Shown here: positions 1 to 40,171 of the stretch, in pieces | How the letters are laid out: each line of letters starts with the position of its first letter | How positions within the stretch are numbered: the first letter of the stretch is position 1 | Source of the DNA: Anaerolineae bacterium | GTDB lineage: Bacteria; Chloroflexota; Anaerolineae; Aggregatilineales; UBA3940 | Assembly: GCA_016926255.1 (NCBI GenBank) | Contig: JAFGOY010000013.1 | Span: 2,139 to 66,138, forward strand | Length of the DNA: 64,000 nt | Reading direction: 5' to 3' | The notes under the pieces: generated by a model | Database searches by the model: none | Told to the model about the DNA's origin: nothing | The model's input: the letters and a program-made list of their open reading frames with translations, nothing else | Made by a program: the position numbers and the translations under genes

Positions 1-479
1 GCAAGAATGACCGCCATCACGATCAGAACCAGCATGGCGATCTGGATCGCACGGATATGCCATTCATCCTGAGCCGTGATCACCCCGCGCAGCCCATTCC
101 ACATCGAACGCGCCCAGGCGATCACCTGCCGATGCAGCCCGCCAAGCGCCGCCGCGATCAGCAGCCAGGCCAACCAGCGCGGCGGGAACAGGCCCAGCAG
201 TCCCAGCACGACAGCCAGAAAACTGATCAACGCCAGCCCCAGCAATGCCTGCACTGATGCGCGTTCCAGGTCGGAGAGGGGGGATAGATCGGGAGTGATC
301 AGCGCACCAATCGCCCCGCCGAGAATCACCAGGGCGATTACCGCGACGATCCCCAGCCCGGTTTGAAGTAAAGCGGCGGCGATCCCCGCCGTAATCGGAA
401 AGTGGACGAGAACGTACCCGCTGACGATCACCCCCAACCACACAACCGCCAGCAGCGGCCCGATGCGACGACGGTTCAT
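1..479 (-). CDS. Polytopic membrane protein, 5' part only (gene runs off the left edge)
   Basis: This gene is absent from the ORF track because it is truncated. My translation of the minus strand from ATG 479..477 gives MNRRRIGPLLAVVWLGVIVSGYVLVHFPITAGIAAALLQTGLGIVAVIALVILGG..., with no stop to position 1 and several hydrophobic helices. Its ATG overlaps the TGA of the upstream gene (ATGA at 476..479). Confidence 0.55.
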   Translation of the reverse strand, partial: MNRRRIGPLLAVVWLGVIVSGYVLVHFPITAGIAAALLQTGLGIVAVIALVILGGAIGALITPDLSPLSDLERASVQALLGLALISFLAVVLGLLGLFPPRWLAWLLIAAALGGLHRQVIAWARSMWNGLRGVITAQDEWHIRAIQIAMLVLIVMAVIL

Positions 480-3212: not shown

Positions 3213-4915
3213 TGATCGTATGTCTCCTGAACGATGACGTCGCCAAACGGCCCCAGCTCTTCCGGGGTGACGGGATAAGGCAGGTCATAGAATACTGTGT
3301 AGGGGCCAATCGATTTCTCTTTGAACGCGATCCCCATTTCGGCGAAGCGCGCCCGGATCGCTTCGTCGAGGGCGGGATGGTTGGCCGTCACATAGACGAC
3401 CTCATCAGCCTCGCGTACCAGTTCGGTATAGGGCGGGTACTTGTTGTCGAGGGTGGTATAGCTCATGTCCTCGTGATAGGGCAGCAGCGGCGCAAGGATG
3501 ATCCGCTCGTCGGTGAGGAAGGCAAAGCGGAAGGTCACCCAGATATTGCTGTAGCCCCGGTCGACACCAATCGAATCGAGGAAGTCGATCAGGTCATCGT
3601 CGTATTCGTGGGGCATCCGGGCGATCTCGGCGTACTGCGTCGATATGCCCGGCGGGTTCCAGATCATCGAGCGGATGGTGCCGGTCAGGTTGTAGCCGAC
3701 CATCAGCGCCAGGATCGCCGGGGCAAGCCAGATCGCCGCCCGGCCTTTGATCACCTCGCCGCCCTTTCGCAGCCGCCCCAGCCACACGCCAACCAGAATC
3801 ACAAAGGGCGGATAGAGCCACATCACGTAGCGCCCGCTTGGGTCGGCAGCGAAGGGCGTGGCGATCAGCAGAACGAGGGTCATCAGGATGGCAAAGATGA
3901 GGCTCCCTGCCCCGACGCGGAGATAGTCCGATTCGGTCTTGTCACGGAGCCACTGCGAGGCGCGAACGAGCACGAATAAATAGATCGCCGCGACGACCAC
4001 GCCGACCGGCAGCGCGATCCAGTCGATAGACCACGAGGGGCGCAGACCGATCAGCGCCGGGAGGTTGAAGAACAGCACCGAGATCACCCGCCCCAGCCAC
4101 GACGCCTCGACCGATCCTTCGGCGAAAGCGGCCCCGACCCGCGATCCGCCCGCCTCGGAGAGAATCCGCCCGGCGATCCGCGAGAAGCCGATGATCCAGG
4201 GCACCGCCCCGGCGACAAAACCCAGCGATACGAGGCCGAGATTCTTCCAGGGAACGCGATTCAAGAATGGTTGTTTTTCGTCCTCTAATCTGGGAGCGAA
4301 CAGGCATCGCCACGCACCGATCACAACGAGCGGCACCAGCGAAGTGATGATCAACGGCTGCTCCCACCAGCCGATCCCGGCCAGCAGCCCGGCCAGCAGC
4401 CACCAACCGATCGATTGTTTACGTCCGGTAATGAGATCGAAGCCGATCAGCCAGAGCAGATTATCGAGCAGCAGGATTTCGACATAGGCCCCCAGCGGCA
4501 CGGTCGTGTAGACGATCATCATCACCGAAGGGATTGCCGTGAGCAGCGCCGCCGACATCGCCGCGAAGCGATCCTCCGAGAGTCGATAGGCCAGCAGGTA
4601 GGTCGTCCAGACAATCGCGAGGTAGAGAGGGATCAGCACCAGCCGCGAGACGAGAACCGTCTGCGGGAAGACGGCAAAGGCGAGCGCGATCAGGTAGGCT
4701 TCGAGCGTGCCGTTGTACGCCTGCCCGTAGTAGAAGATCGGGCGGGCACCCCGCAGGATGTGGCGGGCCATGATCGGCAGCATCGCCTCGTCGGTGTTGA
4801 AGGTCATCACGTTCGAAAGCAGCACGACAAGCTTCAACGCCAGCGCAGCGATCAGCGCCAGCCAGAGGCCGGTGTGAGGCGGTTGCTTTTTTTCGGATTG
4901 TAGTTCATCTGGCAT
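3209..4915 (-). CDS. GT39/GT83 (PMT/ArnT)-like membrane glycosyltransferase (568 aa)
   Basis: The N-terminus has TM1 followed by FNTDEAMLPIMARHIL (a DE motif in loop 1) and YYGQAYNGTLEAY, as in ArnT/PMT_2-type enzymes. There are many TM helices and a soluble C-terminal domain. Confidence 0.65.
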   Translation of the reverse strand: MPDELQSEKKQPPHTGLWLALIAALALKLVVLLSNVMTFNTDEAMLPIMARHILRGARPIFYYGQAYNGTLEAYLIALAFAVFPQTVLVSRLVLIPLYLAIVWTTYLLAYRLSEDRFAAMSAALLTAIPSVMMIVYTTVPLGAYVEILLLDNLLWLIGFDLITGRKQSIGWWLLAGLLAGIGWWEQPLIITSLVPLVVIGAWRCLFAPRLEDEKQPFLNRVPWKNLGLVSLGFVAGAVPWIIGFSRIAGRILSEAGGSRVGAAFAEGSVEASWLGRVISVLFFNLPALIGLRPSWSIDWIALPVGVVVAAIYLFVLVRASQWLRDKTESDYLRVGAGSLIFAILMTLVLLIATPFAADPSGRYVMWLYPPFVILVGVWLGRLRKGGEVIKGRAAIWLAPAILALMVGYNLTGTIRSMIWNPPGISTQYAEIARMPHEYDDDLIDFLDSIGVDRGYSNIWVTFRFAFLTDERIILAPLLPYHEDMSYTTLDNKYPPYTELVREADEVVYVTANHPALDEAIRARFAEMGIAFKEKSIGPYTVFYDLPYPVTPEELGPFGDVIVQETYDQ

Positions 4916-5069
4916 CAGAGTGTGTGTACCCGTGTTGATAGATCGACGGTTGCGGTGAGCGTGATCGCTCGAAGCTTATGCTACACCATCACAATCAGGA
5001 ACGACAACATTGTCGAAGGCCACCCGGTCACTTTGACCATTTCCCAAAGGCCAGACTATACTTCGACCT

Positions 5070-6623
5070 ATGAACGATAAAAAAGACCCGACCATCAACC
5101 GCACCGATCTGATCATCATGGGATCGCTGGCCCTTGTAGCGATCATCCTGCGGGTGATCCCCGGCCTGCGGATCATCGATGATGCCTATATCACCTACCG
5201 CTATGCGGCCAACGTCGCAGGGGGTGTAGGCTTCGTCTACAACGCGGGCGAACCTGTGCTGGGCACGACCACCCCGCTCTACACGCTGCTGCTGACGATC
5301 CTCAGTCTGCCGTTCAAGCCAGAAGCGATCCCGCAAATTTCGGTGATCGTCAACACGCTGTCCGATGGCATCGGCGTGGCGCTGCTCTACCTGATCGGCA
5401 AAAAGCTGATGAAGAACGATCTGCCCGGATTATTTCTCGGGCTGCTCTGGGCGGTCGCGCCAAAAAGCGTCACCTTTGCCATCGGCGGGATGGAAACCAG
5501 TTTTTACATCATGCTGATTCTGAGTGCGTTCGCCGCGTGGCTTTTCGACCGGACGCCGCTATCCGCCGTGCTGACCGGGCTGGCGACACTTACTCGCCCT
5601 GACGCGCTGATCTGGGCCGGGCCGCTGGGACTGGCGATGATCGTCCAGCACTGGATCGGCTACAAGGATCAGCCGATCCTGAAGCGCCTCCCTTGGCGGG
5701 AAGGGCTGATCTATTTTATGGTGCTTCTGCCCTGGCTGATCTACGGGACGATCACCTTCGGCAGCCCGCTGACGCATTCCGTCGCGGCCAAGTCGGTGGC
5801 CTATCACCTGGAGCCGACCAACGCGCTGATCAACCTGATCCAGCAATACTCGACACCCTTCTTCGAATTCGATACCTTCGGCTCGACCGGGGCAATGGTC
5901 GGTTCGCTGGTTTATACGCTTCTGTCGATTCTGGGTGCGCTGTTTTTGTTTCACACCGACTGGCGCTCGCTGCCGCTGATGGTTTTTCCCTGGCTTTTCT
6001 TCCTGGTTTTTGCCATCGCCAACCCGCTGATCTTCCGCTGGTACACCACGCCTACCATCCCCTTCTATTTCCTGAGCATCGTCGCCGGGGTGTGGGGGCT
6101 GATCGAGCGGCTGATCAAAGCGCCGTGGAAGCAGTGGGTACTGGTGCCCTTCGGCCTGCTGTGGCTGTTTACGAGTCTGAACGCCTGGGACATCCACCCC
6201 GATCACGGCCCCGACCGCCCCGCACCGAACATGGCGTGGTACAAGCTGGAACTGCTCTACGAAGAGGCCGCGCGGAGCATCGCCCCGGAAGTCACCGGTG
6301 AGACGGTCGTCGCTGCGGGGGACATCGGCGCGGTAGGCTGGTATTCGGGCGCGAGAATCCTCGATACACTGGGGCTGATCTCGCCGGAGTCGACCGCTTA
6401 CTACCCAATCCCCGAAGAGATGCTGGGCAGCACCGTCTACGCCATCGCCCCTGACCTGATCGTCGACTTGCAGCCGGACTACATCATCATTCTGGAAACC
6501 TACGGGCGCAACGGCCTATTCGTGGATGATCGATTCTGGGAACTGTACGAGGTCAGGGAGATTCTCGATACGGATATTTACGACAGCGAGGGGATGTACA
6601 TTTTAGAGAAGATCACTGACTGA
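5070..6623 (+). CDS. GT-C-like polytopic membrane protein (517 aa)
   Basis: TM1 is followed by RIIDDAYITYRYAANVAGGVGFVYNAGEPVLGTTTPLY. This DD-containing loop-1 motif is one I recall from arabinofuranosyl/mannosyl GT-C-like membrane proteins. More than 10 TM helices and a soluble C-terminal ~120 aa. Confidence 0.55.
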   Translation: MNDKKDPTINRTDLIIMGSLALVAIILRVIPGLRIIDDAYITYRYAANVAGGVGFVYNAGEPVLGTTTPLYTLLLTILSLPFKPEAIPQISVIVNTLSDGIGVALLYLIGKKLMKNDLPGLFLGLLWAVAPKSVTFAIGGMETSFYIMLILSAFAAWLFDRTPLSAVLTGLATLTRPDALIWAGPLGLAMIVQHWIGYKDQPILKRLPWREGLIYFMVLLPWLIYGTITFGSPLTHSVAAKSVAYHLEPTNALINLIQQYSTPFFEFDTFGSTGAMVGSLVYTLLSILGALFLFHTDWRSLPLMVFPWLFFLVFAIANPLIFRWYTTPTIPFYFLSIVAGVWGLIERLIKAPWKQWVLVPFGLLWLFTSLNAWDIHPDHGPDRPAPNMAWYKLELLYEEAARSIAPEVTGETVVAAGDIGAVGWYSGARILDTLGLISPESTAYYPIPEEMLGSTVYAIAPDLIVDLQPDYIIILETYGRNGLFVDDRFWELYEVREILDTDIYDSEGMYILEKITD

Positions 6624-6627
6624 TCAA

Positions 6628-7344
6628 TCAACCGGACAGACGGCGGAAGAACAGCCGGAAGACGGTATTCAGCGCTTTGACGATCTCTTGCTGGGAGATT
6701 TTCGACTGGCCGAGTTTGCGATCTTCGAAGATGATCGGCACCTCGCCGACCCGGTACCCGGCATTCTGAACAAGAAACAGCATTTCGATCAGGAAAGAGT
6801 AACCGCTGCTTTTGATCGAGTCGATGGGCAGGGTTTCGAGCACTTCACGGCGGTAGCAGCGGAATCCGGCAGTAGCATCGCGGGCGCGCAGGCCAAGCAG
6901 AACGTGCGCAAACTGGTTGGCTCCCCAGCTTAACAGGCGGCGGTACCAGGGAAAATCGGGGGTATCGCCGCCGGGAACGTAGCGCGACCCGATGACGAGG
7001 TCGAATCCGTTACCGGCCTTCTCGACCATCGAGGGGATGAAGCGGGGATGGTGCGAAAAGTCAGCGTCCATCGTGATGATGAAATCGGGTTGGAGCGTGA
7101 ACGCTTCCCGGTACCCGGCGAGGTAGGCTGTCCCTAAGCCCAGCTTGCCTGAGCGATGGATCACCCGCACCCGTCCGGGGTGCTGCTCGGCAAGCTGATC
7201 GGCAAGCTGGCCGGTGCCGTCCGGCGAATTGTCGTCGACGACGATCACACTGACATCGACCGGAAGCTCCAAGAGCATCAGCACCAGTTGGTTGATGTTC
7301 TCGCACTCGTTATAAGTCGGGACGATGATCTGTGTGGTGGTCAA
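6628..7344 (-). CDS. ppm1: Polyprenol/dolichol-phosphate mannose synthase (GT2, Dpm1/Ppm1-like)
   Basis: VPTYNECENI, VVDDNSPDGTG, HRSGKLGLGTAYLAGY, MDADFSHHP, VIGSRYVPGG and ATAGFRCYRREVL match the Dpm1/Ppm1 catalytic-domain pattern along the full length. Confidence 0.85.
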   Translation of the reverse strand: MTTTQIIVPTYNECENINQLVLMLLELPVDVSVIVVDDNSPDGTGQLADQLAEQHPGRVRVIHRSGKLGLGTAYLAGYREAFTLQPDFIITMDADFSHHPRFIPSMVEKAGNGFDLVIGSRYVPGGDTPDFPWYRRLLSWGANQFAHVLLGLRARDATAGFRCYRREVLETLPIDSIKSSGYSFLIEMLFLVQNAGYRVGEVPIIFEDRKLGQSKISQQEIVKALNTVFRLFFRRLSG

Positions 7345-7472: not shown

Positions 7473-8561
7473 TTGAGTAAACCCGATAAACACAATACGA
7501 TCCGCCCCTGGATGGTTGTGCTGTTTGTACTCATCGTCTATTTGTTTGTTGTGTTTGCCGTCCACAATTTCGATCCGCTGACCTTCGTGACACTGGCCGA
7601 AGGCCCAACCGGTGACGAGGGCTACGACGGGCAGTACACCTATCACATTGCTGTCGATCCGGTCACCGCTCCGGCGAAGCTCGACGCGCCCGCCTACCGG
7701 ATGCAGCGCATCCTGCTGCCGATCACCGCCCACCTGTTGAGCTTCGGGCAGGCGGCGCTCGTCCCCTGGATGCTGATACTGATCAACGGCGCGGCGCTGG
7801 TGGGCAGTACGTATCTCTTCGAAGAACTACTCACCGCCGAAAACAAAAACCGCTGGTTCGCGCTGATCTACGGGCTGTTCCCCGGCCTGCTGATCTCTGT
7901 TCGATTGAGCGTCAACGAGCCGCTGGCGTTTGGATTGGTCGTCGCCGCGATCTCCCTGTACCGGCAGGACAAACCGATCGGCGCCGCCGTGATGCTGGCG
8001 CTGGCCGGGCTGAGCAAGGAACCGGCGCTCGTCTTTGCAGGCGGATTCATGCTGTGGTTGGCGGTCGAGAAGCGCTGGTGGGAGGCGATCCGGCTGGGGT
8101 TGATCGCCTGGTTGCCCTATATCGTCTGGCAGGTTGTGCTCTTCTTATGGCTGGGCGAGCCGGGCTTCGGATCGGGGGGCGCGGGGCAGACCTCTTTCGA
8201 GTTGATCCCATTCATGGGCTTCTTCCGCATCCTGACCGAGACCGGCAGTCTGAAAGTCTTCACGGTATTCTCCCTGTTCATGGCCCCGATGGTGCTTTTC
8301 CCCGGCCTGTGGGGATTGATCAGCAGCATCCAGAGCATCGCCCGGCGGAGCCATCACCTTTATGTGTATCTGCTGCTCGCCAACGCCGCCGTGATGCTGA
8401 TCATCCCCTACAGCACCTACCGTGAAACACTGGCGATGCTGCGCTTCATCCCGGGGCTGGCGATCTCGGTGATGTTGTACAGCGCCCACTTCAACCGGGC
8501 GCGGATGCTACGCTTCAGCCTCGTCTGGCTCGGCGGATTGGCTTTCCTCGTCGCCGCCTGA
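7473..8561 (+). CDS. Polytopic membrane protein, probable glycopolymer-assembly component (362 aa)
   Basis: TTG start with GAGGAA 4 nt upstream. TM1 is followed by an acidic loop (GPTGDEGYDGQYTYHIAVDP...LDAPAYRMQRILLP) and about 9 further helices. Function is assigned from context only. Confidence 0.45.
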   Translation: MSKPDKHNTIRPWMVVLFVLIVYLFVVFAVHNFDPLTFVTLAEGPTGDEGYDGQYTYHIAVDPVTAPAKLDAPAYRMQRILLPITAHLLSFGQAALVPWMLILINGAALVGSTYLFEELLTAENKNRWFALIYGLFPGLLISVRLSVNEPLAFGLVVAAISLYRQDKPIGAAVMLALAGLSKEPALVFAGGFMLWLAVEKRWWEAIRLGLIAWLPYIVWQVVLFLWLGEPGFGSGGAGQTSFELIPFMGFFRILTETGSLKVFTVFSLFMAPMVLFPGLWGLISSIQSIARRSHHLYVYLLLANAAVMLIIPYSTYRETLAMLRFIPGLAISVMLYSAHFNRARMLRFSLVWLGGLAFLVAA

Positions 8562-10820
8562 CTGTTCTTCGGCCTGCTTGCGGGTCAGCCCCATTGTCCA
8601 GACGATCCCCCACGCGTAGATTGCCGCCCCGCTGATCATCCAGCCCAGGCGGACGCTGCCCGGCTGGTATTCGAAATCGACGGTGTGCGTTCCTTCGGGA
8701 ACCTCGACGGCGCGGAAGACCCCGTTCGCCAGCTTCGTCTCGACATAGACATCATCTACATAGGCATCCCAGCCGGGATAATAGGTGTCACGCAGCAGCA
8801 GCCACCCGGCCATTGGCGTCACGACTTCGAACGACATGTGTGTTGGTTCTTCGATGTCCGGAAAAACCAGCCCGCTGGTAAGCGGCTGGCAGACGACACC
8901 GCTATCAGCCGGTGCGCAGGTTTCGAAGGTTGCACGCGGCACCGTACAGGGTGTCTGGTAGGCGTAAATATCGCCAGCCTTCGCCAGTAGATCAAGATCG
9001 TCACGTGGGTTGGGTGTCAGCAGAACACTTACATTATATTCAACCAGCCGTTCGATTTGTTTCTCCGGTGGCAGATTGTCCAGATCGTCCATTGTGTCGG
9101 CGTAATGCCCGATCAGCAGCGGATCGAAGTTGTTGATGCTGGAAACACCATCGAGCATGAACAGGTTGGGCAGCAGCGAGGCACGCAGGCTCGCCCAGTG
9201 ATCGATATCGCCGCTGTGGAAATCGTCGAAGGTGAAATACTGCTCAAACTTGACCGTATTCTCGTCGGCGGGCAGAGTGGCAATCCGCGTGCCGGACGGG
9301 ACGAGATCGGCCAGCGGCGAGCGGGTGTTGATCACACTCGCGGGCAGGGTCGGGTTCAGCCCCCAGTGGGTCGATACCAGGTCGGCGGCGAGGCAAACCA
9401 TCACCAGCAGTTCCCAGGCTGTGATGCGCTTCGCGGCGGCCATCTGGCGGTAGAGCAGGATCAGGCCGCCCAGCACCGCCAGCGAAAGCCCAAAGCGCAC
9501 GAAGGCCAGGATAAAACGGGGTTGGACGGATTCACCCACCACCGCCGACGCAGCCAGCACCGCGATCACCATTGCCAGCCCGGCAGCGATCAACCGTTTG
9601 GCCCAGCTTCGGGTGCGGACGGTCCCCCGCCATTGATCGGCCCCGATGCCGCCCAGGACGCTCAGCGCGAAAACCGCCAGCACCATCCAGCGGGTTGGCC
9701 CGTTGAACAGATCGAAGGTCGGGATATGATCAAACAGCCAGGGGAAGATCGGCGTGTTCCAGCCCAGGGCGAAGATCAGCACCGGGAGCAGGCTGTAAGC
9801 AAAGAACGGGACGACTGATAGAGAAGTCGGCGGCGGGTCTTCTTTGCGACCACGCCATAACTGAACCAGCGCGATCACACCAAAATAGAGGGTCGGCAGG
9901 CCGACAAAAACAGCATCTTCCCAGTACGCGCCATAGCCGACGTAATCGCCCGTCGCCGGGCTGCCGAACAGGTTCGGCATCAGGAAGGTCAGGAAGTGCC
10001 AGGGCCAGAACGAATAGCTAAGCGAAACATACCGGTCGACTCCGGCGGCACGCTGCGAGGTCTGCATCAATTCGAGGGTGGGGGTCAACTGGACGGCGGC
10101 CAGCCCGATCCCGAGAGTGACTGCGATCAGCGCCATCACCAGCACCCGCGCCGACTGTTTGCGGTCGCCCTTACGCTTGAAGAACACCCACAGCGCATAG
10201 CACCCGGCCATCAGCAGGCTGTAAAAACTCAGTTGGGCATGCCCGGCGAGCAGCATCAGCGCGGCGATTCCCGAAAGCTGTACAACCCCGTTGAACGCCT
10301 GCCACGATCCGGGTTCGGCATGCATCAGCGCATCGACGGAGGCGATCAGCCAGGGGAGCCAGCTTGCCACGCACAGGATCGGGAGGATGCCAAAGCGGGC
10401 GATCAGGAAGCCGCTCAACGCGTAGGCGATCATTCCGACGCCCTGCCCCAGCCGGTTGATCTCCCAGCGGCGGAGCAGCGTCCGCATCCCGAACCCGGCC
10501 CAGATCACGTGAATCAGCCCGACCAGGCCGTTGGCGTAGGCTGCCGGGATGATCAGGTAGAGCCAGTTGGGTGGGTAGAATATCCCGATCTGGTAGTTGG
10601 CTAAAAGCGGCGCACCGAACCCGGCGTACGGGTTCCATAATGGCGATTGGCCCGCCCTGATCGCGTCGAAGGCAAAGGATCGCCAGGGGATGAACTGCAA
10701 GAGCGGCGTTCCCCAGAAGATCACTTCACCCAGCAGCAGGCGATGAAACAATACAACGACCGCCGAACTCAGCACGGCGATAGGAATCCAGACTTTCCGG
10801 TTCTTTTGCACGTCAATCAC
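8508..10820 (-). CDS. YfhO-family (GT-C-like) membrane protein (770 aa)
   Basis: LLQFIPWRSF...GQSPLWNPYAGFGAPLLANYQIGIFYPPNWLYL is the YfhO N-terminal signature. A large soluble domain is followed by a final TM helix, as in YfhO proteins. Confidence 0.7.
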   Translation of the reverse strand: MIDVQKNRKVWIPIAVLSSAVVVLFHRLLLGEVIFWGTPLLQFIPWRSFAFDAIRAGQSPLWNPYAGFGAPLLANYQIGIFYPPNWLYLIIPAAYANGLVGLIHVIWAGFGMRTLLRRWEINRLGQGVGMIAYALSGFLIARFGILPILCVASWLPWLIASVDALMHAEPGSWQAFNGVVQLSGIAALMLLAGHAQLSFYSLLMAGCYALWVFFKRKGDRKQSARVLVMALIAVTLGIGLAAVQLTPTLELMQTSQRAAGVDRYVSLSYSFWPWHFLTFLMPNLFGSPATGDYVGYGAYWEDAVFVGLPTLYFGVIALVQLWRGRKEDPPPTSLSVVPFFAYSLLPVLIFALGWNTPIFPWLFDHIPTFDLFNGPTRWMVLAVFALSVLGGIGADQWRGTVRTRSWAKRLIAAGLAMVIAVLAASAVVGESVQPRFILAFVRFGLSLAVLGGLILLYRQMAAAKRITAWELLVMVCLAADLVSTHWGLNPTLPASVINTRSPLADLVPSGTRIATLPADENTVKFEQYFTFDDFHSGDIDHWASLRASLLPNLFMLDGVSSINNFDPLLIGHYADTMDDLDNLPPEKQIERLVEYNVSVLLTPNPRDDLDLLAKAGDIYAYQTPCTVPRATFETCAPADSGVVCQPLTSGLVFPDIEEPTHMSFEVVTPMAGWLLLRDTYYPGWDAYVDDVYVETKLANGVFRAVEVPEGTHTVDFEYQPGSVRLGWMISGAAIYAWGIVWTMGLTRKQAEEQSGGDEESQSAEPDEAEA

Positions 10821-12486
10821 CTACCCGATAAATTGTATAATCGCCCTTAGTATAGACGGCCTCCAGATCGAGGGCGGCGGGATCGAAACAATTGGACACA
10901 CAATTTACAGCCTGTTCGAGCGGCCCGATCAAAATATAGTCGACGCCGATCTCGTCGAGAAATTCCCGGCGCTCGTCGTCCGCCATCCCGCCGAAGAGAA
11001 ATGCCTTTGCGATCTCGTTCTTTCGATGATCGTCGTTCGTCTCCGGCCCCTGCCCGATATACGTCCGCACCCCGGCGTAGGCCGGGATGACGTTGCTCTG
11101 CTGCTGGGAAGCCAGCACGATACTCCCCTGCGGCACCTCGTCACGCAGCCAGTTCATCGCCTCGATCTCCTCAACCGAATGAAATACCGGTCTTTCCAGG
11201 CGGGTGGCGGTCAGCGCCCCACCGCCGACGACCAGCAGCGTCGAAGGCAGGATCAGCATGATTACGGTGCCCATCGCAATCTGGCGCAGCCGCCAGCCGA
11301 GTTTCGGATCGTCATCACCGGGCTTCTCGCCGACCAGCCGGAACACGCCGACCGTCGCCAGGATCGAGAGCGGCACGATCACGCCTTCGAGCAGGCGCCG
11401 CTGAACGTTCAGCGGCATATAGACCAGCATCGCCGCCGCGATGATCCAGACGATCAGCAGCCGGTATTTGTCGTCCAGCCGATCCTTACGCAGGTCGAAC
11501 AGGCCGATCACGCTCAGGATCAGCAGCAGGCCGTAGGCCAGCAGGTAATCGATCAGCGGTGGCGACGGCAGATCGTTCTGCGCCGCCCAGCCCGCGAAAA
11601 CCGGGTTGGTGCTGAACAACCAGGCATTGTAGATCAGCAGGCCAACCGGGATTGCCGCCGCCAGCGCACAGCTTTTGAATTCGTCCCAGGGGATTTCCCG
11701 CCGGGTGATCCACAACATAATCAGCCACGCGGCGATCAGCACGCCCAGCAGCCCAATATAGAAGGGGACGATCACGCCCATCACGCCCCAGGCAAGCCCG
11801 ACGGCAATGATCCAGCGCCGGTCTTTCCGTTCCAGCGCAAAGAACACCCCCATCCAGCCAACGAGCATCATCGCACGGGCCAGTGACAGATGCGGCAGGC
11901 TGTACAGCAGCAGAATCGTGAAGGCTTCCGGCACATAAGTCTCGACCGGCAGCGACTCCCAGCCGGGGAGCAGGTTCAGCGTCGAGAGCACCGTCGGCAG
12001 CCAGCCGACTCCCCCGGCAGCCGAGGCGAGGATCCAGGCCAACCGGCGTTTGGGCGGCACGTCAAGAAACAGGGCTATGAATCGATACATCACCGCAAGC
12101 AGCAGCAGTCCGCACAACACCCGCGCGACATGAAAGGTAACGATCAACGTCCCGGCGGAGACCTTCGCCCCCTCCCCGCTGATCCAGGCAGCGAGCTTCC
12201 CCAGCGCGATATAGTGCAAATAAGCGAAGCCGCTCGCGTGCGGCTCATGCGTGTAGACGATCTGGAGCAGCCAACCGTTGTAGGCTCCATAGCGCATCTT
12301 GGCGATGTAGGAATTCATATCGGGGACGCCCAGCAGGAACCCGCCGAAGCGCATCTCCGGCGTCGAGTGATTCAGCCCGACGACATAGGGCATGCTGACA
12401 AAAGCCATCAGCAGCAGGCTGACGATGATCACCCAGCCCCATTCTTTGATCGTAACCGCAGGAGCAGATTTACTCTCGTTCGCCAT
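10813..12486 (-). CDS. Polytopic membrane protein, unnamed family, paralog of 14610..16208 (557 aa)
   Basis: Shares GVPDMNSYIAKMRYGAYNGWLLQIVYTHEPH with VNPIDGASYQAKMYQGYTGNWLFHLPYTPESH in the paralog. The C-terminal soluble domains also match (AMNWLRDEV..SIVLAS versus AMKWLESTA..SLVLAS). 8-nt overlap with the downstream gene. Confidence 0.5.
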   Translation of the reverse strand: MANESKSAPAVTIKEWGWVIIVSLLLMAFVSMPYVVGLNHSTPEMRFGGFLLGVPDMNSYIAKMRYGAYNGWLLQIVYTHEPHASGFAYLHYIALGKLAAWISGEGAKVSAGTLIVTFHVARVLCGLLLLAVMYRFIALFLDVPPKRRLAWILASAAGGVGWLPTVLSTLNLLPGWESLPVETYVPEAFTILLLYSLPHLSLARAMMLVGWMGVFFALERKDRRWIIAVGLAWGVMGVIVPFYIGLLGVLIAAWLIMLWITRREIPWDEFKSCALAAAIPVGLLIYNAWLFSTNPVFAGWAAQNDLPSPPLIDYLLAYGLLLILSVIGLFDLRKDRLDDKYRLLIVWIIAAAMLVYMPLNVQRRLLEGVIVPLSILATVGVFRLVGEKPGDDDPKLGWRLRQIAMGTVIMLILPSTLLVVGGGALTATRLERPVFHSVEEIEAMNWLRDEVPQGSIVLASQQQSNVIPAYAGVRTYIGQGPETNDDHRKNEIAKAFLFGGMADDERREFLDEIGVDYILIGPLEQAVNCVSNCFDPAALDLEAVYTKGDYTIYRVGD

Positions 12487-14629
12487 GATTGGCCTTCCCT
12501 ACCGTTCGCACTATCCAGATGATCAGCAGCGCCAGCGCCGTGATCCCGCTGATCGCCGCACCGAGCAGGTCGGCGGTTGGGCGGTAGACCAGCTCGATAT
12601 CCGATTCACCCGCCGGGAGGCACAGCCCGATCAGCGCGCCGGAGACGCGGCGCACCGGCACCGCCCCGCCGTTGATCGCCGCCCGCCAGCCGGGTGCCCA
12701 GGCCACCGGCACGATCAGTGTTGTGGGTTGATCGGCGCTGACCGTCGTCGACAGACGGTTGGGCGTCTCGATCCATTCCGCGTCATAGAAGGGTGGCAGA
12801 TCGAAGGCCGCCAAGTCGACCGAATAATAGTATTCGCCGCCGGAATGGGCGATCAGCGCCAGCCCATCGGCCTCGATGGGGAAGCGGGCGACGACATCGC
12901 TCACGCCCAGCACGGCCAGCCGCCCGACATCGGGGACGGCATCGGCCAGCGCCAGCGCCGGGTCGACCTCCCCGCCGGAAGCGACCGGCGGTGCGACCAC
13001 GCTGTAGCCCGCCATTTCGACCCCGGCAGCCTCGGCGATGGCTTCGGCGCTCCACTGGAACTGAAAAGGGTCGACCCCGTGCAGCGTCTCGATCCCGGCC
13101 TGCGCCGCCGACGCGCCGACCAGATCAAACGATGGAGAGTAAACCCGCCCGTCGACATCGCCCAGCCGGGCGATAATCGCTCGGTCGACCGCTTCCGCCT
13201 GCTCCACTGTGCGCCCATCGACAAGTGACTCGCCGATCAGCCAGCCCACCACCACGACAGCGCCCACCAGCAGCACTGATCCGGCGGCACGGGGCGTTAG
13301 CCAGTCGACGCCTTCTGCGATTTTCAACTGCTGCGATCCAATCAGCAGCAGGGCCAGCGCGCTGACGCCTACCGAAGCCCCGGCGATGCTCGCAGCGGGC
13401 ACATCCGGGAGGAGGATCAGCGCCGCCGCAAACCAGGTCAGCCCGGTGGCGGTGATGGCAAAGAACGCCATTCGCCACGCTTTGTTGATCCCGCTCCTGA
13501 GCAGATCGTCGAAGCCGTACGCAGAGATAACAGTCAGGGCAAGGATCACGACGAACCACGCGCGCGACGGCACGCGGAACCAACCGACCAGCGGCAGCAT
13601 GTTTGCCACCGGCATGAACAGCGGCCCATTCGATCCCAGCGACCAGACGGCAGCGACAATCGCCACGCCCCACCAGACCATCGATTCGACCCAGCGCGGT
13701 GACCGGCGCAGCGACAGGATCGCCAGCAGGACGACCGGCGCGGCGAGGTAGGTCATCCACTCGTGGAAGCCGCCCAGGTCGGAGATCAACATGCCGATCA
13801 GGTAGGAAGGGGGCAGCGAATAGACGGCGGCATCCTGCGCGGTGATCCAGTCCCGCGTGAGCGACGATCCCAGCCCAATCACCGGCACCACTTCGACGGC
13901 GATAAGCAGCGCAAACAATCCCGCCGCAAGTGCCACCGGCCCGGCGATCCGCCCGATCTTCACGCCGGATCGAATCAGGAGCAGCAGGCCGTAGACCGAT
14001 GCCATTGGCAGCATATAGAACGCGATCCGCAGATCAGCAAGCGCCAGCATCGCGGTGATGGCAGCCAATCGCACCGCCGACCAACCGCGCCTCTCATCGA
14101 CTAGTCGGTTGACGCCCGCCATCAGCCAGGGTGTCCATGCCAGCGCATAGACAATATCGAGGTGACCGGCCCCCAGGTGGGAGAGCAGTTTGGCGTTCAG
14201 TCCCCAGGCCAGCGCAGCAAAGAGGGCAGCGACCGGGCGCAGCTTTTCCGCCCTGCCCCAGGCGATTATCCCCAGGGCAAGCCAGACCATATGCAGATAG
14301 ATCATCAGGTCGAGGTGAAGCGTCACCGGGAGGATCAGCGCCAGCCATTGGGGAGGATACCAGACCTTAGAGAGCGGATTCGCGGCGAATGACTGCCCAA
14401 GCATCCGGGCACTGTTCCACAGGGGCCACTCGCCGAACTGCCTGACCGACTGCTGAAGGCGGTAGGCATTCGGCCAGTGAGCGAGGGCCGCGTCGGAGAC
14501 ATCGCTGCCGGGCGGATAAGGTAGCCGCCCCGGTGGGATCAAAATGGCAGCCGTCGCCACCAGGATAAAAACGCTAACCCAGCGGGCTATCTGCCAGGAA
14601 CGAGAGGGATCACTCCGCTCCGGCAGCAT
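12470..14629 (-). CDS. YfhO-like (GT-C-like) membrane protein, paralog of 8508..10820 (719 aa)
   Basis: GEWPLWNSARMLGQSFAANPLSKVWYPPQWLALILP aligns with the YfhO motif of the 770-aa protein. It has the same architecture: TM bundle, soluble domain, terminal TM. Confidence 0.6.
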   Translation of the reverse strand: MLPERSDPSRSWQIARWVSVFILVATAAILIPPGRLPYPPGSDVSDAALAHWPNAYRLQQSVRQFGEWPLWNSARMLGQSFAANPLSKVWYPPQWLALILPVTLHLDLMIYLHMVWLALGIIAWGRAEKLRPVAALFAALAWGLNAKLLSHLGAGHLDIVYALAWTPWLMAGVNRLVDERRGWSAVRLAAITAMLALADLRIAFYMLPMASVYGLLLLIRSGVKIGRIAGPVALAAGLFALLIAVEVVPVIGLGSSLTRDWITAQDAAVYSLPPSYLIGMLISDLGGFHEWMTYLAAPVVLLAILSLRRSPRWVESMVWWGVAIVAAVWSLGSNGPLFMPVANMLPLVGWFRVPSRAWFVVILALTVISAYGFDDLLRSGINKAWRMAFFAITATGLTWFAAALILLPDVPAASIAGASVGVSALALLLIGSQQLKIAEGVDWLTPRAAGSVLLVGAVVVVGWLIGESLVDGRTVEQAEAVDRAIIARLGDVDGRVYSPSFDLVGASAAQAGIETLHGVDPFQFQWSAEAIAEAAGVEMAGYSVVAPPVASGGEVDPALALADAVPDVGRLAVLGVSDVVARFPIEADGLALIAHSGGEYYYSVDLAAFDLPPFYDAEWIETPNRLSTTVSADQPTTLIVPVAWAPGWRAAINGGAVPVRRVSGALIGLCLPAGESDIELVYRPTADLLGAAISGITALALLIIWIVRTVGKANHGERE

Positions 14630-16208
14630 AAATCTCCACCTCGCCGTCCGCCGACCGGAAAAGCGGATCGCCCTGAACCGGGCACATCTCGCCGTCGCTT
14701 AACGCCCGTTCACGCGGCCCGACGAATATGTGCTCGACGCCCTCGTCTTCGACGACCGAGCAGTCAGCGCCGCTGTAAAAATCGATCACCGCCTGCTCAC
14801 GCTGCCCGGCGTTGAGCGTCTCGTATTGATGCCCATAGACTACTCTCAAGCCGCGCGTTGGGAGAATCAGCCCGATTTCCGGGGAGGCCAGCACCAGCGA
14901 ATGCGGCGCAGTTGACTCCAGCCATTTCATCGCGCCATCCTCTTCCCGGCTGATGAAATACGACTGGCCGCTTTCCTCGATTAGCTGGCGGCTGCCCAGC
15001 ATCGGGGCAATTAACGCCGTCAGCGTCGTCGGAAGGAATACCAGGATACCCAGCACCACGCCAAGAAACTGCCTGCGATTGAACAGGTTGGGAACGACTA
15101 CCCGCCACAGGCCGCATCCGGCATAGACCACCATCGGCATGATCAGCGCCATCGAAAAGCGGCGCTGTAAACCCAGCGGGGCATAGAGAGTCAGCAGCCC
15201 ACTGACCAGCCACGCGATCAGAAACAGATCGGGAAGATCGAACTTTTTAAGCAGGCTGCTCATCCCGACCAGGGCAAAGAGCAGGATCGGGCCAAAGGCA
15301 ATCAGGTAGTCCCAGACTGGCGGAGATGGCGTGATATTCTGGCTCATCCAGGCGTGAAACACCGGGTTCAGCGAAGATATCGCCCAGATGTTATAGGCGA
15401 TGAACGGCAGACCAAAGATAATAACTACAAATCCCCAGTTTAGCTCTCGACGCGGGAGGCGCTTTTCTTTCCACCAGATACCGGCGAGCAGCGCGCCATA
15501 GGCGATCCCGACCGGCAGCAGGACAAACGGGGCAGTGTTGACCAGGAAAACGGTGGTCAGGGCCAGCGCAATCGAGTCGACATTCAGTTCCGGCCAGTAT
15601 TCTTCCTCGCCAAGCGCGTGCTTGGTCAGGATGTGGACGACAACCAGGATACTGGCTATCGCCAGAGGAAAATGGGCGTTGGCATAGGCCGCCTGGAGCG
15701 GGAAAGCCTCTGGAAGGACCAGCATGTCGGGGGACAGATGACCAAACATCAACGCAATCCATCCAAACCCGGAACCGAGAACGGCCAGAGCCCAGGTGAT
15801 CCGCCGCTGGGTGACGTTATCCGTCCAATCGGAGACGAACCGGTAGATGGCAAGGAACATCACCATCCCGCCGATCATCCGCATGGCATGGAAGACCAGA
15901 ATGGTCGACGTGCCAAGTATGCGGGCCAGGTGGCCCAACCCGAGATAATAGGTGAAGAGCAGCACCGGCTGGTGAGATTCGGGTGTATAGGGCAGATGGA
16001 AAAGCCAGTTCCCGGTATATCCCTGGTACATCTTGGCCTGGTACGATGCGCCGTCAATCGGGTTGACCAGCGCCCCCATGAAAACAGAACCGGGGGTGGC
16101 AACACCATATGCCCAGACAAAGGGGATCAGCAGCAAGATCAACAGGATCGTGCTGAAGGTGAACACCCATCGCCATTCCGCATTTTCAATTAATCCTATA
16201 CTAATCAT
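14610..16208 (-). CDS. Polytopic membrane protein, unnamed family, paralog of 10813..12486 (532 aa)
   Basis: See the paralog entry. It is the first gene of a four-gene overlapping operon (overlaps of 20, 17 and 8 nt). Confidence 0.5.
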   Translation of the reverse strand: MISIGLIENAEWRWVFTFSTILLILLLIPFVWAYGVATPGSVFMGALVNPIDGASYQAKMYQGYTGNWLFHLPYTPESHQPVLLFTYYLGLGHLARILGTSTILVFHAMRMIGGMVMFLAIYRFVSDWTDNVTQRRITWALAVLGSGFGWIALMFGHLSPDMLVLPEAFPLQAAYANAHFPLAIASILVVVHILTKHALGEEEYWPELNVDSIALALTTVFLVNTAPFVLLPVGIAYGALLAGIWWKEKRLPRRELNWGFVVIIFGLPFIAYNIWAISSLNPVFHAWMSQNITPSPPVWDYLIAFGPILLFALVGMSSLLKKFDLPDLFLIAWLVSGLLTLYAPLGLQRRFSMALIMPMVVYAGCGLWRVVVPNLFNRRQFLGVVLGILVFLPTTLTALIAPMLGSRQLIEESGQSYFISREEDGAMKWLESTAPHSLVLASPEIGLILPTRGLRVVYGHQYETLNAGQREQAVIDFYSGADCSVVEDEGVEHIFVGPRERALSDGEMCPVQGDPLFRSADGEVEIYAAGAE

Positions 16209-16429: not shown

Positions 16430-17131
16430 GTGTACCAGACAACTGCGTTGTACCAACTACAAACCACCGACAGCAAACTCGATTCCATTCGCAAACGGCT
16501 GAAAGAGATCGACGGGCTGCTCAGTGAAAACGAAGTGCTTCAGGCGGCTGTTCAGGCCAGAGATAATGCCGAAGAAACGCTCCGGAACTGGAAAACCCGC
16601 CAGAAAGACCTGGACTTCGAACGCCAGCAGCTAAAAGAAGAAGCAAAAACATCCGAAGAGCGCCTCTACTCCGGGCGGATTCACAACCCGCGAGAACTGG
16701 GCGATCTGCAAAACAAGCTGGCCGAGTTGAACCGCCGCATCGAAGACCTGGAAGACCCGGTCATCGAAGCGATGCTCGAAATCGAGGAAGCGACCGAGTC
16801 GGTCAGCACAACGCAGGCCGACCTCGACCGGATCACCGAAGAATTCGCCGACCAGTTCGCCGAACTGACGACTGAACGAGAGCAGCTTCTAAGCCAGCAT
16901 GACAAAAAGATGAGCGAAGCCGAACAGCAGCGGGTGCTAATCGAGGCCCCGAATCTTCGCCTGTACGACAGTTTGCGGAAACGCCCCGGAGGGATTGCCG
17001 TCGCGACGCTGAATGCCAATGCCGAATGCAGCGTATGCGGGGTTCAGGTCACGTCGAGTCTGAACCAGCAGGTACGGCGAGGAGAGGTCACGCCCTGCCC
17101 CACCTGCGGGCGCATTCTATACCGCGCATAA
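16430..17131 (+). CDS. Coiled-coil protein with C-terminal C4 zinc ribbon (COG1579 / HP0958-like)
   Basis: A long heptad-rich helical region is followed by ECSVCGVQV...TPCPTCGRILY (CxxC...CxxC). This matches the DUF164/zf-RING_7 architecture. Confidence 0.7.
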   Translation: MYQTTALYQLQTTDSKLDSIRKRLKEIDGLLSENEVLQAAVQARDNAEETLRNWKTRQKDLDFERQQLKEEAKTSEERLYSGRIHNPRELGDLQNKLAELNRRIEDLEDPVIEAMLEIEEATESVSTTQADLDRITEEFADQFAELTTEREQLLSQHDKKMSEAEQQRVLIEAPNLRLYDSLRKRPGGIAVATLNANAECSVCGVQVTSSLNQQVRRGEVTPCPTCGRILYRA

Positions 17132-17138
17132 GTCGAGG

Positions 17139-19610
17139 ATGGTAACTATGTCTATTGATGTCCTATCGCTGGTAATCGGCGCACTTGTCGCGGCGGGCCT
17201 GACGGTATTGATCATCACCCAGCGCGAGCGCCTGATGAGCCTGGGGCAGGCCACCCGGAAAGGCGTCAGCGCCACGCGGGAACAGCTTTCACGTGGGGCC
17301 GCCGAACGCTACCGGGACGCGCTGATCAAGATGATCAACAGCTTCCACGTCGCCGGACACCTCGTCCCACTTGAGCAGATCGCCCGCATCCCGTCGTTTT
17401 TTGCCCCGCTCACTCCCTTCGACCCGGTAAGCGAAAACAATCCCGAATATGACCGGCCTCACTATCTGGTGCCCATCGTATTGGATTGGCCCCAGGTGAT
17501 GGCCCCCTACGCAATGCCCGCCATCCCGATGACCGAACTGCTGCGCGGGGATGATCACCTGCTGCTGCTTGGCGCTCCTGGCAGCGGACGAACTGCTGCG
17601 CTGGCGCTGATCGCGATCCTTGCTTCCCGGCAGAGAGAAGCAAGCCAGCCGGGAAGCCTGACCGACGAACCACGTCTTCCTGTCTATTTGCACTTACGCT
17701 ATCTCGACCTCGACCCGGAAAACTACGGCAATAACGTCGATCCGCTCCAACCGTTGCTCGATGCCGCCGAATCCTCGTTCGAGGGATCGGGAGGGCGGCT
17801 GGTCTACTCCGCACAGAGCATACTGGCAAACGGAGACGGGATCATCCTGCTCGACGGGTGGGATGAGATTCCCGCCGAACACCAGCCGCGTGTCACGGAG
17901 TGGCTGTCTGTATTGAAGGGTTCCTATCCGGGGAACAAAATCGTCGTCAGCGGGGATGTCCGGGGATACGCACCGCTGCTCCAGATCGGATTTTCGCCGG
18001 TCTATGTCATGCCCTGGAGCAAACAGGACTGCGCTGAACTGGCCCAACTATGGGCCGATGCGTGGCCGGAGATCGGGGGGACGGAGAGACGGCCCGCCGA
18101 TCCGCCATCTGCCGAGCAGATTCAGCGGGCAGTGCGGGGTAACCGGGCACGCAGCCCGCTCGATGTCACCCTCCACATCTGGGCGATCTATGCCGATGAT
18201 ATCGCCTCTGATACAAAACTCGACTGGTACCAGTCATACGTCGACCGGGTCAGCCCGGCCCCGATTCTTCGTCCTGTGCTCGACCGGATGGCCGAAGTTC
18301 TGCTGGTGAGCGATCAGGTGGCCCTGCCCTTCGACGACGTTGTCAACATCATCGATTCGATGCGGGCGGCGCTCCCGGAAAGAGCATCGATCAGCACACC
18401 CGATTACATCTACGCAGTGACCAACAAAACACATCTCCTGGCCGAAACCACTAATGGTGATCTGCTGGTCAACCACCCGGTAATCGCCGCTTTTCTCGCC
18501 GCCGAATCATTCCAGGGACTCGAATTCCGCGAGAGCCTGCTCGACAATACGCCAACAAACAACCTGATCCTGACCTTCCTGGCTCAGATGAGGGATATTG
18601 GCCCCTACGTCGAAAGGCGGTTGTCGGAAAGCAGCAGCATTCTGTTTGACAACATCCTGGGAACGATGGGCTGGGCTGCCGATGCGGACATTTCCGACAG
18701 CTGGCGAAACCCGGTCTTTTCGCAACTGTCCGATATGCTGCTCAACCAGGAAACCTTCCCGGCGGTGCGCGAGCGGGTGATGGCCGCGCTGGTCAGTTCG
18801 CGCGAGCCGAATGTACTCCACATCTTCAAACGCGGGATCGGAAGCACCGACCCCTTGATCCGCCGCCTGTGCGCAATCGGGATGGGAGCGATGGATGACC
18901 CGGATGCGATCCCGATCCTCGGCGAACTGATCGAAGAGGAAGACCCGGCCATCGAAGCGTCGGCGGCACTGGCCCTGGGCGCAATTGGCACCCAGACCGC
19001 CATGAACTACATGATCCAGGTGCTGCTGACCGGCAGCGAACTTGCCCGCCGGGCAGTGGCCGAAATGCTGGGCGCGACAAATACCGCAGGAGAAGGCCAT
19101 GCCGTTCTGCGCGAAGCGCTCGAAGAAGTCGACCCTTTGGTTCGCAAGGCGACGGTCTACGGCCTCGAACGAATCGGCGCAGACTGGGTGATCGAAATCC
19201 TCACCGACCTCGAAAAACGCGACGAGCAATGGCTGGTGCGGTCGGCGGCGGGAGCCGCCCTGATCAGACTCCAGGGCAGCGAAGAAGAGGATATCGAAGC
19301 AGTCATTGGGCCACACGGCGCGCCCCCTCCCCAGAAAATGGATTGGCTGGTCAACTTCTATGCAATGCGCGACCAGAATGTCCAGGAGGGCACAGACGCA
19401 CTTGGGCAGATTCTCCAGGCGATGCACGAGGGCGACGACGCCACCCGGCTGGCGGCGATTGAATCGCTGCCCACGCTGGGGATGAGCAGGGCAGCAAAAT
19501 CGATCTACGACCGGTTAAACGATCAGCATCCCGAAATCCGTGATGCTTCGTACCGGGCGTTGCAGGCGATCAGTCTGGCGGTGGGTGTATCGCTGCCCGG
19601 CGTTCTGTAG
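17139..19610 (+). CDS. N-terminally membrane-anchored NACHT-like P-loop NTPase with C-terminal HEAT repeats (823 aa)
   Basis: TM helix LSLVIGALVAAGLTVLII. Walker A-like LLLLGAPGSGRTAALAL and NACHT-type Walker B IILLDGWDEI. The C-terminus has repeated DPxxR...A..ALG HEAT/PBS-lyase-like units. ATG 17148 (GAGGA 8 nt upstream) is an equally good start. Confidence 0.6.
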   Translation: MVTMSIDVLSLVIGALVAAGLTVLIITQRERLMSLGQATRKGVSATREQLSRGAAERYRDALIKMINSFHVAGHLVPLEQIARIPSFFAPLTPFDPVSENNPEYDRPHYLVPIVLDWPQVMAPYAMPAIPMTELLRGDDHLLLLGAPGSGRTAALALIAILASRQREASQPGSLTDEPRLPVYLHLRYLDLDPENYGNNVDPLQPLLDAAESSFEGSGGRLVYSAQSILANGDGIILLDGWDEIPAEHQPRVTEWLSVLKGSYPGNKIVVSGDVRGYAPLLQIGFSPVYVMPWSKQDCAELAQLWADAWPEIGGTERRPADPPSAEQIQRAVRGNRARSPLDVTLHIWAIYADDIASDTKLDWYQSYVDRVSPAPILRPVLDRMAEVLLVSDQVALPFDDVVNIIDSMRAALPERASISTPDYIYAVTNKTHLLAETTNGDLLVNHPVIAAFLAAESFQGLEFRESLLDNTPTNNLILTFLAQMRDIGPYVERRLSESSSILFDNILGTMGWAADADISDSWRNPVFSQLSDMLLNQETFPAVRERVMAALVSSREPNVLHIFKRGIGSTDPLIRRLCAIGMGAMDDPDAIPILGELIEEEDPAIEASAALALGAIGTQTAMNYMIQVLLTGSELARRAVAEMLGATNTAGEGHAVLREALEEVDPLVRKATVYGLERIGADWVIEILTDLEKRDEQWLVRSAAGAALIRLQGSEEEDIEAVIGPHGAPPPQKMDWLVNFYAMRDQNVQEGTDALGQILQAMHEGDDATRLAAIESLPTLGMSRAAKSIYDRLNDQHPEIRDASYRALQAISLAVGVSLPGVL

Positions 19611-38720: not shown

Positions 38721-38817
38721 ACATTCCTCAAGGTTGTTTCGGGTTCAAGTCAAGGCAGCTAGTATCGCCCGGCGTATAAAAAAGATCAAATAAAGGCAAC
38801 ATACGATATGGTGTTGT

Positions 38818-39198
38818 TTAACCGACGATATCGCGGATGATCCGAACCGGTGCGCCAGAGCGCGTGCCGCGCAGTTGGGTGGTATCGCCAAGCATCTGGC
38901 CGACGATATTCACCGGACTGTAGGCACGGGGTTGATCGCCGGTGCTGACGGGCGTGGGGCCGTAGAAAATACAGAAGGCTTTACCAACCGGCCAGTAACC
39001 CAACTCGCCGATCTCGACCTCCTCACGCGCACCGGGTTCCTGATCGGCGTTTACCGGGATTTCGAAGTAAACCTCGTCACCCCAGACATTGGCCGCCCCG
39101 TCGATGGGGAGCACGTTCCAGATCAGGTTTGCGGTCGGGCTGTCGTTGAGCCTTGCCTTGAACGTGCGATCCCCGACGGTGATGACAATCTGCCTCAT
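38818..39198 (-). CDS. Cyclophilin-like fold protein (TM1367-like, unknown function)
   Basis: ARLNDSPTANLIWNVLP...NVWGDEVYFEIPV...IGELGYWPVGKAFCIFYGPTPVS...PVNIVG matches my memory of the Cyclophil_like family. ATGA overlap with the upstream GT2 gene. Confidence 0.55.
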   Translation of the reverse strand: MRQIVITVGDRTFKARLNDSPTANLIWNVLPIDGAANVWGDEVYFEIPVNADQEPGAREEVEIGELGYWPVGKAFCIFYGPTPVSTGDQPRAYSPVNIVGQMLGDTTQLRGTRSGAPVRIIRDIVG

Positions 39199-40163: not shown

Positions 40164-40171
40164 GAGGTCGC

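Follow-up and report, generated by a model that had tools for sequence, protein, structure and literature searches.

A four-gene operon conserved in Chloroflexota alternates two families of probable GT-C glycosyltransferases

Introduction

The Pgf cluster of Streptococcus mutans (PgfS, PgfM1, PgfE and PgfM2) combines a GT2 enzyme with two YfhO-like GT-C paralogues. The broader logic of systems that join a GT-A enzyme, a flippase and a GT-C enzyme, CsbB/YfhO included, has been reviewed (PMC8035078). The YfhO protein of Bacillus subtilis consists of a transmembrane (TM) core, a large outer loop of 389 amino acids (aa) and a last TM helix (PMC5836110). Durairaj et al. 2023 described, as 'component 27', a large dark family of bacterial transmembrane proteins that is automatically annotated as YfhO, the models of which fit true YfhO poorly and resemble STT3/PglB (PMC10584680). 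Here we analyse an operon of four genes on the minus strand of Anaerolineae bacterium contig JAFGOY010000013.1, within a stretch of 64,000 nucleotides (nt) that we call the window and whose positions serve as coordinates throughout. The genes, B1, A1, B2 and A2 in order of transcription, encode two proteins of an unnamed family (family B) and two YfhO-like proteins (family A). With a probability of about 0.6, we read the operon as encoding four GT-C glycosyltransferases of two distantly related families that would act on an envelope glycan by way of polyprenyl-phosphate sugars.

Results

Two paralogous pairs in alternating order

B1 (14610–16208, minus strand; 532 aa, ATG start) is the first gene of the operon and encodes a predicted GT-C-fold membrane glycosyltransferase of the unnamed family. 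On the same strand follow A1 (12470–14629, minus; 719 aa, ATG start), a YfhO-like GT-C protein with a conserved S45-D46 in its first loop; B2 (10813–12486, minus; 557 aa, ATG start), a B1 paralogue of the same GT-C family that keeps its putative catalytic set; and A2 (8508–10820, minus; 770 aa, GTG start), a YfhO-like GT-C protein with a C-terminal beta-sandwich at residues ~597–718 and a terminal TM helix at 721–762. An earlier note on this DNA had described four overlapping minus-strand genes in the order B1-A1-B2-A2, and the list of open reading frames (ORFs) gives exactly the coordinates it claimed. With the longest ORFs, the B1/A1, A1/B2 and B2/A2 junctions overlap by 20, 17 and 8 nt, respectively, and purine-rich stretches resembling Shine-Dalgarno sequences lie a few bases 5' of the ATG codons of A1 and B2. 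An NCBI protein identical (100%) to A2, 'YfhO family protein [Anaerolineae bacterium]', is three residues shorter (767 aa). Hence its GTG start lies three codons further in, which turns the 8-nt overlap into a 1-nt gap; the B2/A2 junction is tight with either start. Upstream of the operon, a non-coding stretch of 221 nt separates B1 from a divergently transcribed neighbour. A scan for promoters and terminators in and around the operon gave nothing convincing.

The two B proteins are 30% identical over their full length (BLASTP, E-value (E) 8e-58) and the two A proteins 23% identical over ~650 residues (E 2e-24); profile-profile alignment with hhalign gives a probability of 100% for B1/B2 and for A1/A2. 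The N-terminal and C-terminal blocks that the earlier note had seen in both B proteins are visible in the BLASTP alignment, as is the PLWN / AN / YPPxWL block that it had assigned to both A proteins. At the level of sequence, the presence of two paralogous pairs in alternating order is thereby confirmed, with similarity far beyond chance.

Remote sequence homology between A and B was also considered and was rejected. BLASTP between the families is not significant, and hhalign gives a probability of only 1–9% for any A/B pair; the two are related at the level of fold only.

Family B adopts a GT-C fold

Searches of sequence and profile databases did not name family B: Pfam, NCBIfam and the PDB gave nothing usable, and only fold comparison worked. 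B1 has no significant match in Pfam or NCBIfam. The C-terminal ~120 residues of B2 weakly match TIGR03662 (Chlor_Arch_YYY; E 1.2e-8, 34 bits versus a cutoff of 300), and neither phmmer nor a profile search found sequence relatives of B in the PDB. Its homologues are all 'hypothetical proteins' without a name from metagenome bins of Anaerolineae and Chloroflexota. Weak matches to DUF6541 occur in 6 of 41 family members (best E 3e-9), B1 and B2 of the window not among them, and a few relatives give weak matches to DUF6798, Alg9-like or Dpy19 models. The family is large, comprising 3,146 clusters at 50% identity in an exhaustive profile search (E <= 1e-30), with lengths of 499–652 aa among the best 150 of these 3,146 clusters.

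An AlphaFold2 model of B1, built from a 41-sequence alignment, is of high confidence (predicted local distance difference test (pLDDT) 93, predicted TM-score (pTM) 0.93). Foldseek finds 23 matches to it in the PDB at E <= 0.001, all of them GT-C enzymes: STT3 (E 3e-8), DPY19, AglB, ArnT (TM-score 0.55–0.56), PglB, AftD and AftA. In the model, TM helix 1 and a short strand come first, with two helices in the first outer loop; then follows a core of many helices, and an alpha/beta domain of ~110 residues forms the C-terminus. The GT-C fold assigned to B2 and A1 follows from their paralogy to the modelled B1 and A2.

Acidic residues of the first loop, whose position relative to the membrane is read from the secondary structure of the models and not from coordinates, are strongly conserved. 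D52 of B1, where the first loop helix begins, does not vary (27/27 orthologues), and its counterpart in B2, D56, is conserved in 100% of 27 orthologues. In both orthologous groups this acid (D52/D56) is kept in at least 90% of sequences together with E167/E187, H179/H199 and a Q-R-R triplet (348–350/362–364). A first-loop acid is the hallmark catalytic or metal-binding residue of GT-C enzymes. Its role has been shown for GtlB (PMC5836110). Neither WW[DE] nor W[WF]D[YWF]G (WWDYG-type) motifs occur in B1, B2, A1 or A2.

B had previously been taken for an undescribed partner protein of YfhO-type enzymes. The model speaks against that idea, as B itself has a GT-C fold with an invariant first-loop Asp and conserved Glu and Arg residues. 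Because the fold and the invariant Asp go together with further residues conserved in both paralogues, family B is probably a GT-C-fold glycosyltransferase and not an accessory partner, and both copies are probably active enzymes in their own right.

Family A resembles YfhO and other GT-C enzymes

Both A proteins exceed the gathering score of the Pfam YfhO family (PF09586; 28.5 bits), A1 with 36.6 bits and A2 with 60.6 bits, whereas B1 and B2 do not match it. No sequence relatives of A were found in the PDB. The AlphaFold2 model of A2 (pLDDT 93.9) has 14 PDB matches by Foldseek at E <= 0.001, again all GT-C enzymes, with ArnT as the best (6.5e-8) followed by AftD, AftA, AglB, EmbA/B and STT3. 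The helices of the core end near residue 484, residues 491–718 are of mixed and beta-sandwich structure, and the final TM helix occupies 721–762. This is the layout of B. subtilis YfhO, with an outer region of ~235 aa compared with 389 aa.

The putative active-site residues of the two A groups differ. In A1 orthologues, D46 and H51 are each kept in 26 of 27 sequences and D199 and R201 in 93%, S45-D46 forming the conserved element of the first loop. A2 orthologues carry W36-G37-[T/L]-P and Q42-F43 in the first loop in place of S45-D46 and H51, and H194/Q196 at the second site in place of D199/R201. Common to both groups are E290/E301, D520/D566 and three arginines. The description of 'component 27' fits family A, which may belong to it.

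The operon is old and its order is fixed

One genome per species was scanned, yielding 464 relatives of B, and the best 80 loci were analysed by calling ORFs and assigning these to classes with hidden Markov models (HMMs) of the four window proteins and their neighbours in sequence. By title, Chloroflexota account for 79 of the 80, from Anaerolineae, Anaerolineales, Aggregatilineales, Ardenticatenia, Thermoflexales and Caldilineaceae; the remaining one is from an 'uncultured bacterium'. In all cases the first B resembles B1 and the second resembles B2, and the A genes are equally consistent. In neighbour-joining trees B1, A1, B2 and A2 are each monophyletic, so that the phylogeny of the duplicates resolves into four reciprocally monophyletic orthologous groups.

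Among the 38 complete loci with enough flanking DNA, the arrangement B1-A1-B2-A2 predominates (22/38). Shorter versions are B1-A1-A2 (5/38), B1-B2-A2 (4/38), B1-A1 (3/38), B1-A1-B2 (2/38), B1-A2 (1/38) and B1 alone (1/38), and in no locus are the genes rearranged. At most junctions the genes overlap by 4–20 nt, the 20-nt B1/A1 overlap recurring in seven loci. A YfhO-like gene directly follows B1 or B1-B2 in 60 of the 65 loci with at least 2.5 kb of downstream DNA, a strong linkage of B and A across genomes. Four further loci were recovered with A2 relatives, not B, as the query: a B1-A1-B2-A2 locus with truncated B1, B1-A1-(histidine kinase)-A2, B1-A1-A2, and a locus in which A2 has no B gene near it.

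At 5491–6171 of locus L082 (CP070708, Anaerolineaceae, 3.4 Mb), B1 is cut short, its ORF reaching ~226 aa at most and the gene as called 176 aa, beside intact A1, B2 and A2, which looks like a natural truncation of B1. In L083, a GAF/PAS histidine kinase gene (7659–9998) lies in the B2 position between A1 and A2.

The earlier note had proposed a tandem duplication of a two-gene module. A single B-A duplication is still the simplest origin; the event was, however, neither local nor recent, given four old orthologous groups. From these comparisons, one tandem B-A duplication is most likely the source of the alternation. We infer from the trees that it was ancient, predating the split and radiation of the orders of Anaerolineae-type Chloroflexota, and that the copies would then have diverged into separate enzymes.

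Genes around the operon

Downstream of A2, a plus-strand gene (7473–8561) encodes a 362-aa membrane protein of the AZOBR_p60025 family, a 'cell surface glycopolymer formation protein' (NF046093, 164 bits versus a cutoff of 150). It is convergent with A2 and the 3' ends overlap by 54 nt (8508–8561). The same 54-nt convergent overlap is seen in the closest relative, L002 (A2 end at 17786; convergent gene 17733–18821). Of the 30 loci whose downstream DNA extends for at least 2.5 kb, 9 have an AZOBR_p60025 homologue no more than 4 kb after A2.

The A2 stop is followed, after about 1.2 kb, by a GT2 gene (6628–7344, minus; 238 aa) of the Dpm1/PpgS/ArnC/AglJ type (Pfam Glycos_transf_2, E 1e-33). In NCBIfam it is closest to the models for PpgS, dolichyl-phosphate hexose transferase, ArnC, AglJ and PgfS, without reaching the equivalog cutoff of any. 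Judged by these relatives, the enzyme is the probable supplier of a lipid-linked sugar donor. Next to it, at 5070–6623 (plus), is a polytopic membrane protein of 517 aa, a candidate GT-C enzyme with weak matches to NF046093 and to a terminal beta-(1->2)-arabinofuranosyltransferase model; homologues of this protein lie near the operon in L003, L004, L015, L016, L058 and L084. At least one gene of the GT2, AZOBR or 517-aa type is found within 4 kb after A2 in 15 of 30 loci.

Further towards the window edge are a PMT_2 protein (3209–4915, minus; Pfam 27.3 bits versus a cutoff of 26.1), a 504-aa membrane protein with no family match (1698–3212, minus) and a GT87 protein (476–1771, minus; Pfam 28 bits versus a cutoff of 25). 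Directly downstream of the GT87 gene, an ORF at the edge of the window (3–479, minus), of which 159 aa are seen, has about five hydrophobic segments and no Pfam match; it may be a further membrane component of the cluster. Membrane proteins of the GT-C type are unusually frequent in the flank at 476–7344; counted with the operon and the AZOBR-family gene, as many as nine candidate lipid-sugar-dependent transferases are encoded within 16 kb.

On the other side, divergent from B1, are a CT398-like coiled-coil/zinc-ribbon protein (16430–17131, plus) and a protein with TM, P-loop and HEAT-repeat regions (17139–19610, plus), both assigned by Pfam; NACHT is annotated on the L083 homologue of the latter. 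These genes lie upstream of B1 in 33–35 of the 51 loci with at least 4 kb of upstream DNA, about two thirds, and no functional link between either neighbour and glycosylation is evident.

In two relatives, L001 (15684–17105) and L085 (12268–16049), the gene immediately after A2 encodes a Bac_transf phosphoglycosyl transferase, and in L085 a Wzy_C/TPR protein of the ligase or polymerase type also follows A2. These genes hint at a lipid-linked polysaccharide as the acceptor.

Two more distant features of the window were noted. A separate sugar-related cluster at 36225–43010 (minus) comprises a GT4 glycosyltransferase, RNase HII, two GT2 enzymes, an RmlD-type reductase and two proteins of ~330 aa without assignment. 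A GAF-domain histidine kinase and an OmpR-type response regulator are encoded at 22642–25580 (plus), ~6 kb from the operon.

Discussion

The results above show how the genes are laid out and related, that the proteins have a GT-C fold and keep certain acidic and basic residues, and that gene order and linkage are conserved. To this we add a mechanism that proposes a donor type, an acceptor, a sidedness and catalytic activity for all four proteins. It is drawn by analogy with GT-A, flippase and GT-C systems. A cytoplasmic GT2 enzyme of the Dpm1/PpgS type would load a sugar onto polyprenyl phosphate, and the lipid-linked sugar would be flipped across the membrane. Outside the membrane, B1, A1, B2 and A2 would each transfer a sugar onto an envelope glycan, either one after another or in parallel. 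The acceptor glycan would be bound by the beta-sandwich domain of the A proteins, and other GT-C-like proteins of the neighbourhood probably take part.

Several observations weigh against this reading. The fold matches of B1 and A2 are modest (TM-scores 0.4–0.58, identity 9–16%), and the best YfhO stretch in A1 and A2 covers the last ~70 profile positions only (763–835 of 835). Of 30 loci, just 12 carry a GT2 homologue in the 4 kb that follow A2. No GtrA-type flippase gene was found in the 64-kb window; outside larger genes only two small ORFs have multiple hydrophobic segments, and neither matches GtrA. The acceptor could also be a protein instead of a polysaccharide. Finally, A2 lacks an invariant first-loop acid, position E32 being acidic in 76% of 41 sequences. 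Since this acid is not invariant and the counterparts of A1 D46 and D199 are replaced, A2 may not be a conventional catalyst, although it is under strong constraint. The residue patterns suggest a difference in chemistry between A1 and A2, or an A2 without catalytic activity.

In a rival model that goes back to the earlier note, B1:A1 and B2:A2 would form obligate heteromers of a stoichiometry fixed by translational coupling, for example with the small B protein catalysing transfer and A binding the acceptor glycan through its beta-sandwich. We consider this rather unlikely. B and A are adjacent in 60 of 65 loci with overlapping junctions conserved across them, A2 lacks the invariant first-loop acid while B2 keeps its Asp, the GT-C heterodimers EmbA-EmbB (7bvc) and Pmt1-Pmt2 (6p25) are among the fold matches of A2, and small GT-C enzymes have been speculated to need a second protein for acceptor binding (PMC8035078). 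The variant loci (four B1-B2-A2, five B1-A1-A2, three B1-A1, two B1-A1-B2 and one B1-A2 among complete ones), together with one locus with a truncated B1 and another with a solitary A2, nevertheless argue against obligatory 1:1 pairs of B and A. A1 keeps a first-loop Asp of its own, overlapping genes are in general common in GC-rich operons, and no B-A fusion occurs among the ~390 homologues listed. Mirror-tree analysis does not favour adjacent pairs either: raw correlations are 0.89–0.94 among all four proteins, as shared phylogeny predicts, and the partial correlation is highest for the non-adjacent B1-A2 (0.49), with 0.44 for B1-A1 and 0.35 for B2-A2. A further elaboration, which we offer as speculation and doubt more than the heteromers themselves, is that dedicated B-A GT-C pairs, a catalytic B docked on an acceptor-holding A with A2 a largely non-catalytic scaffold, build a class-specific envelope polysaccharide outside the membrane together with the flanking GT-C genes, as part of an Anaerolineae-type layered envelope.

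If the acceptor were protein, the operon would be a protein-glycosylation machine in which B, A or both transfer sugars or oligosaccharides to secreted or surface proteins. The top Foldseek matches of B1, catalytic subunits of oligosaccharyltransferases and the C-mannosyltransferase DPY19, fit this idea, as do PgfM1 and PgfM2 of streptococci, the nearest named NCBIfam models for A. Those Pgf scores are, however, very low (12–21 bits against cutoffs of 1400–1500), ArnT, AftA and AftD fit B1 about equally well, and B and A have no WWD[YWF]G-type motif; B ends in a C-terminal domain of just ~110 aa, and phosphoglycosyl transferase and Wzy_C-type genes after the operon in some genomes point to a lipid-linked polysaccharide. 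We therefore judge protein glycosylation unlikely. Very improbable is a role for B as a non-catalytic accessory or chaperone of YfhO-type enzymes: its want of a Pfam or NCBIfam assignment and its constant position just upstream of A-type genes would suit such a role, whereas B has a full GT-C fold, its first-loop Asp is invariant and, despite deep divergence, both paralogues strictly keep the Glu, His and Arg residues, as would be expected of an active site. Alternating paralogues in metagenome-derived sequence could in principle also arise by recent local tandem duplication or misassembly of this genome, an explanation whose chance is next to nil. The paralogues are only 23–30% identical, and the same four-gene order recurs in dozens of independent assemblies from several orders. 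Each paralogue being monophyletic and the order fixed across orders, a recent duplication or assembly artefact is refuted.

Four GT-C glycosyltransferases acting on an envelope glycan thus remain our preferred reading of the operon. No paper in the literature library covered deals with family B, DUF6541 or the B-A operon, nor with AZOBR_p60025 or GT-C clusters in Anaerolineae. Envelope chemistry in Chloroflexota is poorly known. Absence of the lipopolysaccharide pathway has been noted, and the layers outside the membrane have been suggested to be polysaccharide or protein, a proposal relayed in the same source (PMC13319060). The operon is a conserved, class-wide candidate for making envelope material. 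Its B-A alternation is moreover a testable case of whether small GT-C enzymes cooperate with larger, acceptor-binding ones; if there is no such cooperation, the locus is an ordinary multi-enzyme glycan operon.

Comparison with known systems sets the locus in context. In the CsbB/GtcA/YfhO system of teichoic acid glycosylation in Firmicutes, a gene resembling a GT2 polyprenyl-phosphate sugar synthase likewise lies beside a GT-C gene of the YfhO family (PMC5836110, PMC8035078). That system has one GT-C gene, whereas here there are four from two families and no GtrA-type flippase in the window. Teichoic acids are, to our knowledge, not known in Chloroflexota. The Pgf cluster shares with this locus a GT2 enzyme and two YfhO-like paralogues, and among named NCBIfam models PgfM1, PgfM2 and PgfS come closest; it differs in having neither a family-B-type enzyme nor the alternating order and in using adhesins as acceptors, and the window proteins score far below the equivalog cutoffs. 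Mycobacterial EmbC/EmbA/EmbB, AftA and AftD with Ppm1/PpgS offer the parallel of tandem paralogous GT-C genes, several enzymes serving one envelope polysaccharide. EmbA and EmbB form a heterodimer, and PpgS is the best NCBIfam match of the window GT2. The likeness of the mycobacterial GT-C enzymes to B and A is at the level of fold only (9–16% identity) and domain sizes differ; no evidence of an arabinose or mannose pathway was found for this locus.

ArnT/ArnC, which transfer aminoarabinose to lipid A, are close in fold, as ArnT is the best match of A2 and among the best for B1 (TM-score up to 0.56), and ArnC is among the matches of the window GT2. ArnT has no sequence-level match to B or A, and its target is lipid A, which Chloroflexota are not known to make. 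Family B is like the uncharacterised membrane families DUF6541 and TIGR03662 by weak, sub-threshold matches only, and the paper on 'component 27' (PMC10584680) describes neither family B nor a B-A operon. Systems of this type are known, with precedents in GT-C enzymes, in YfhO-type systems and in tandem paralogues such as embCAB; what is new here is a GT-C family without a curated model, the genes of which alternate in a fixed pattern with YfhO-like ones across a bacterial class.

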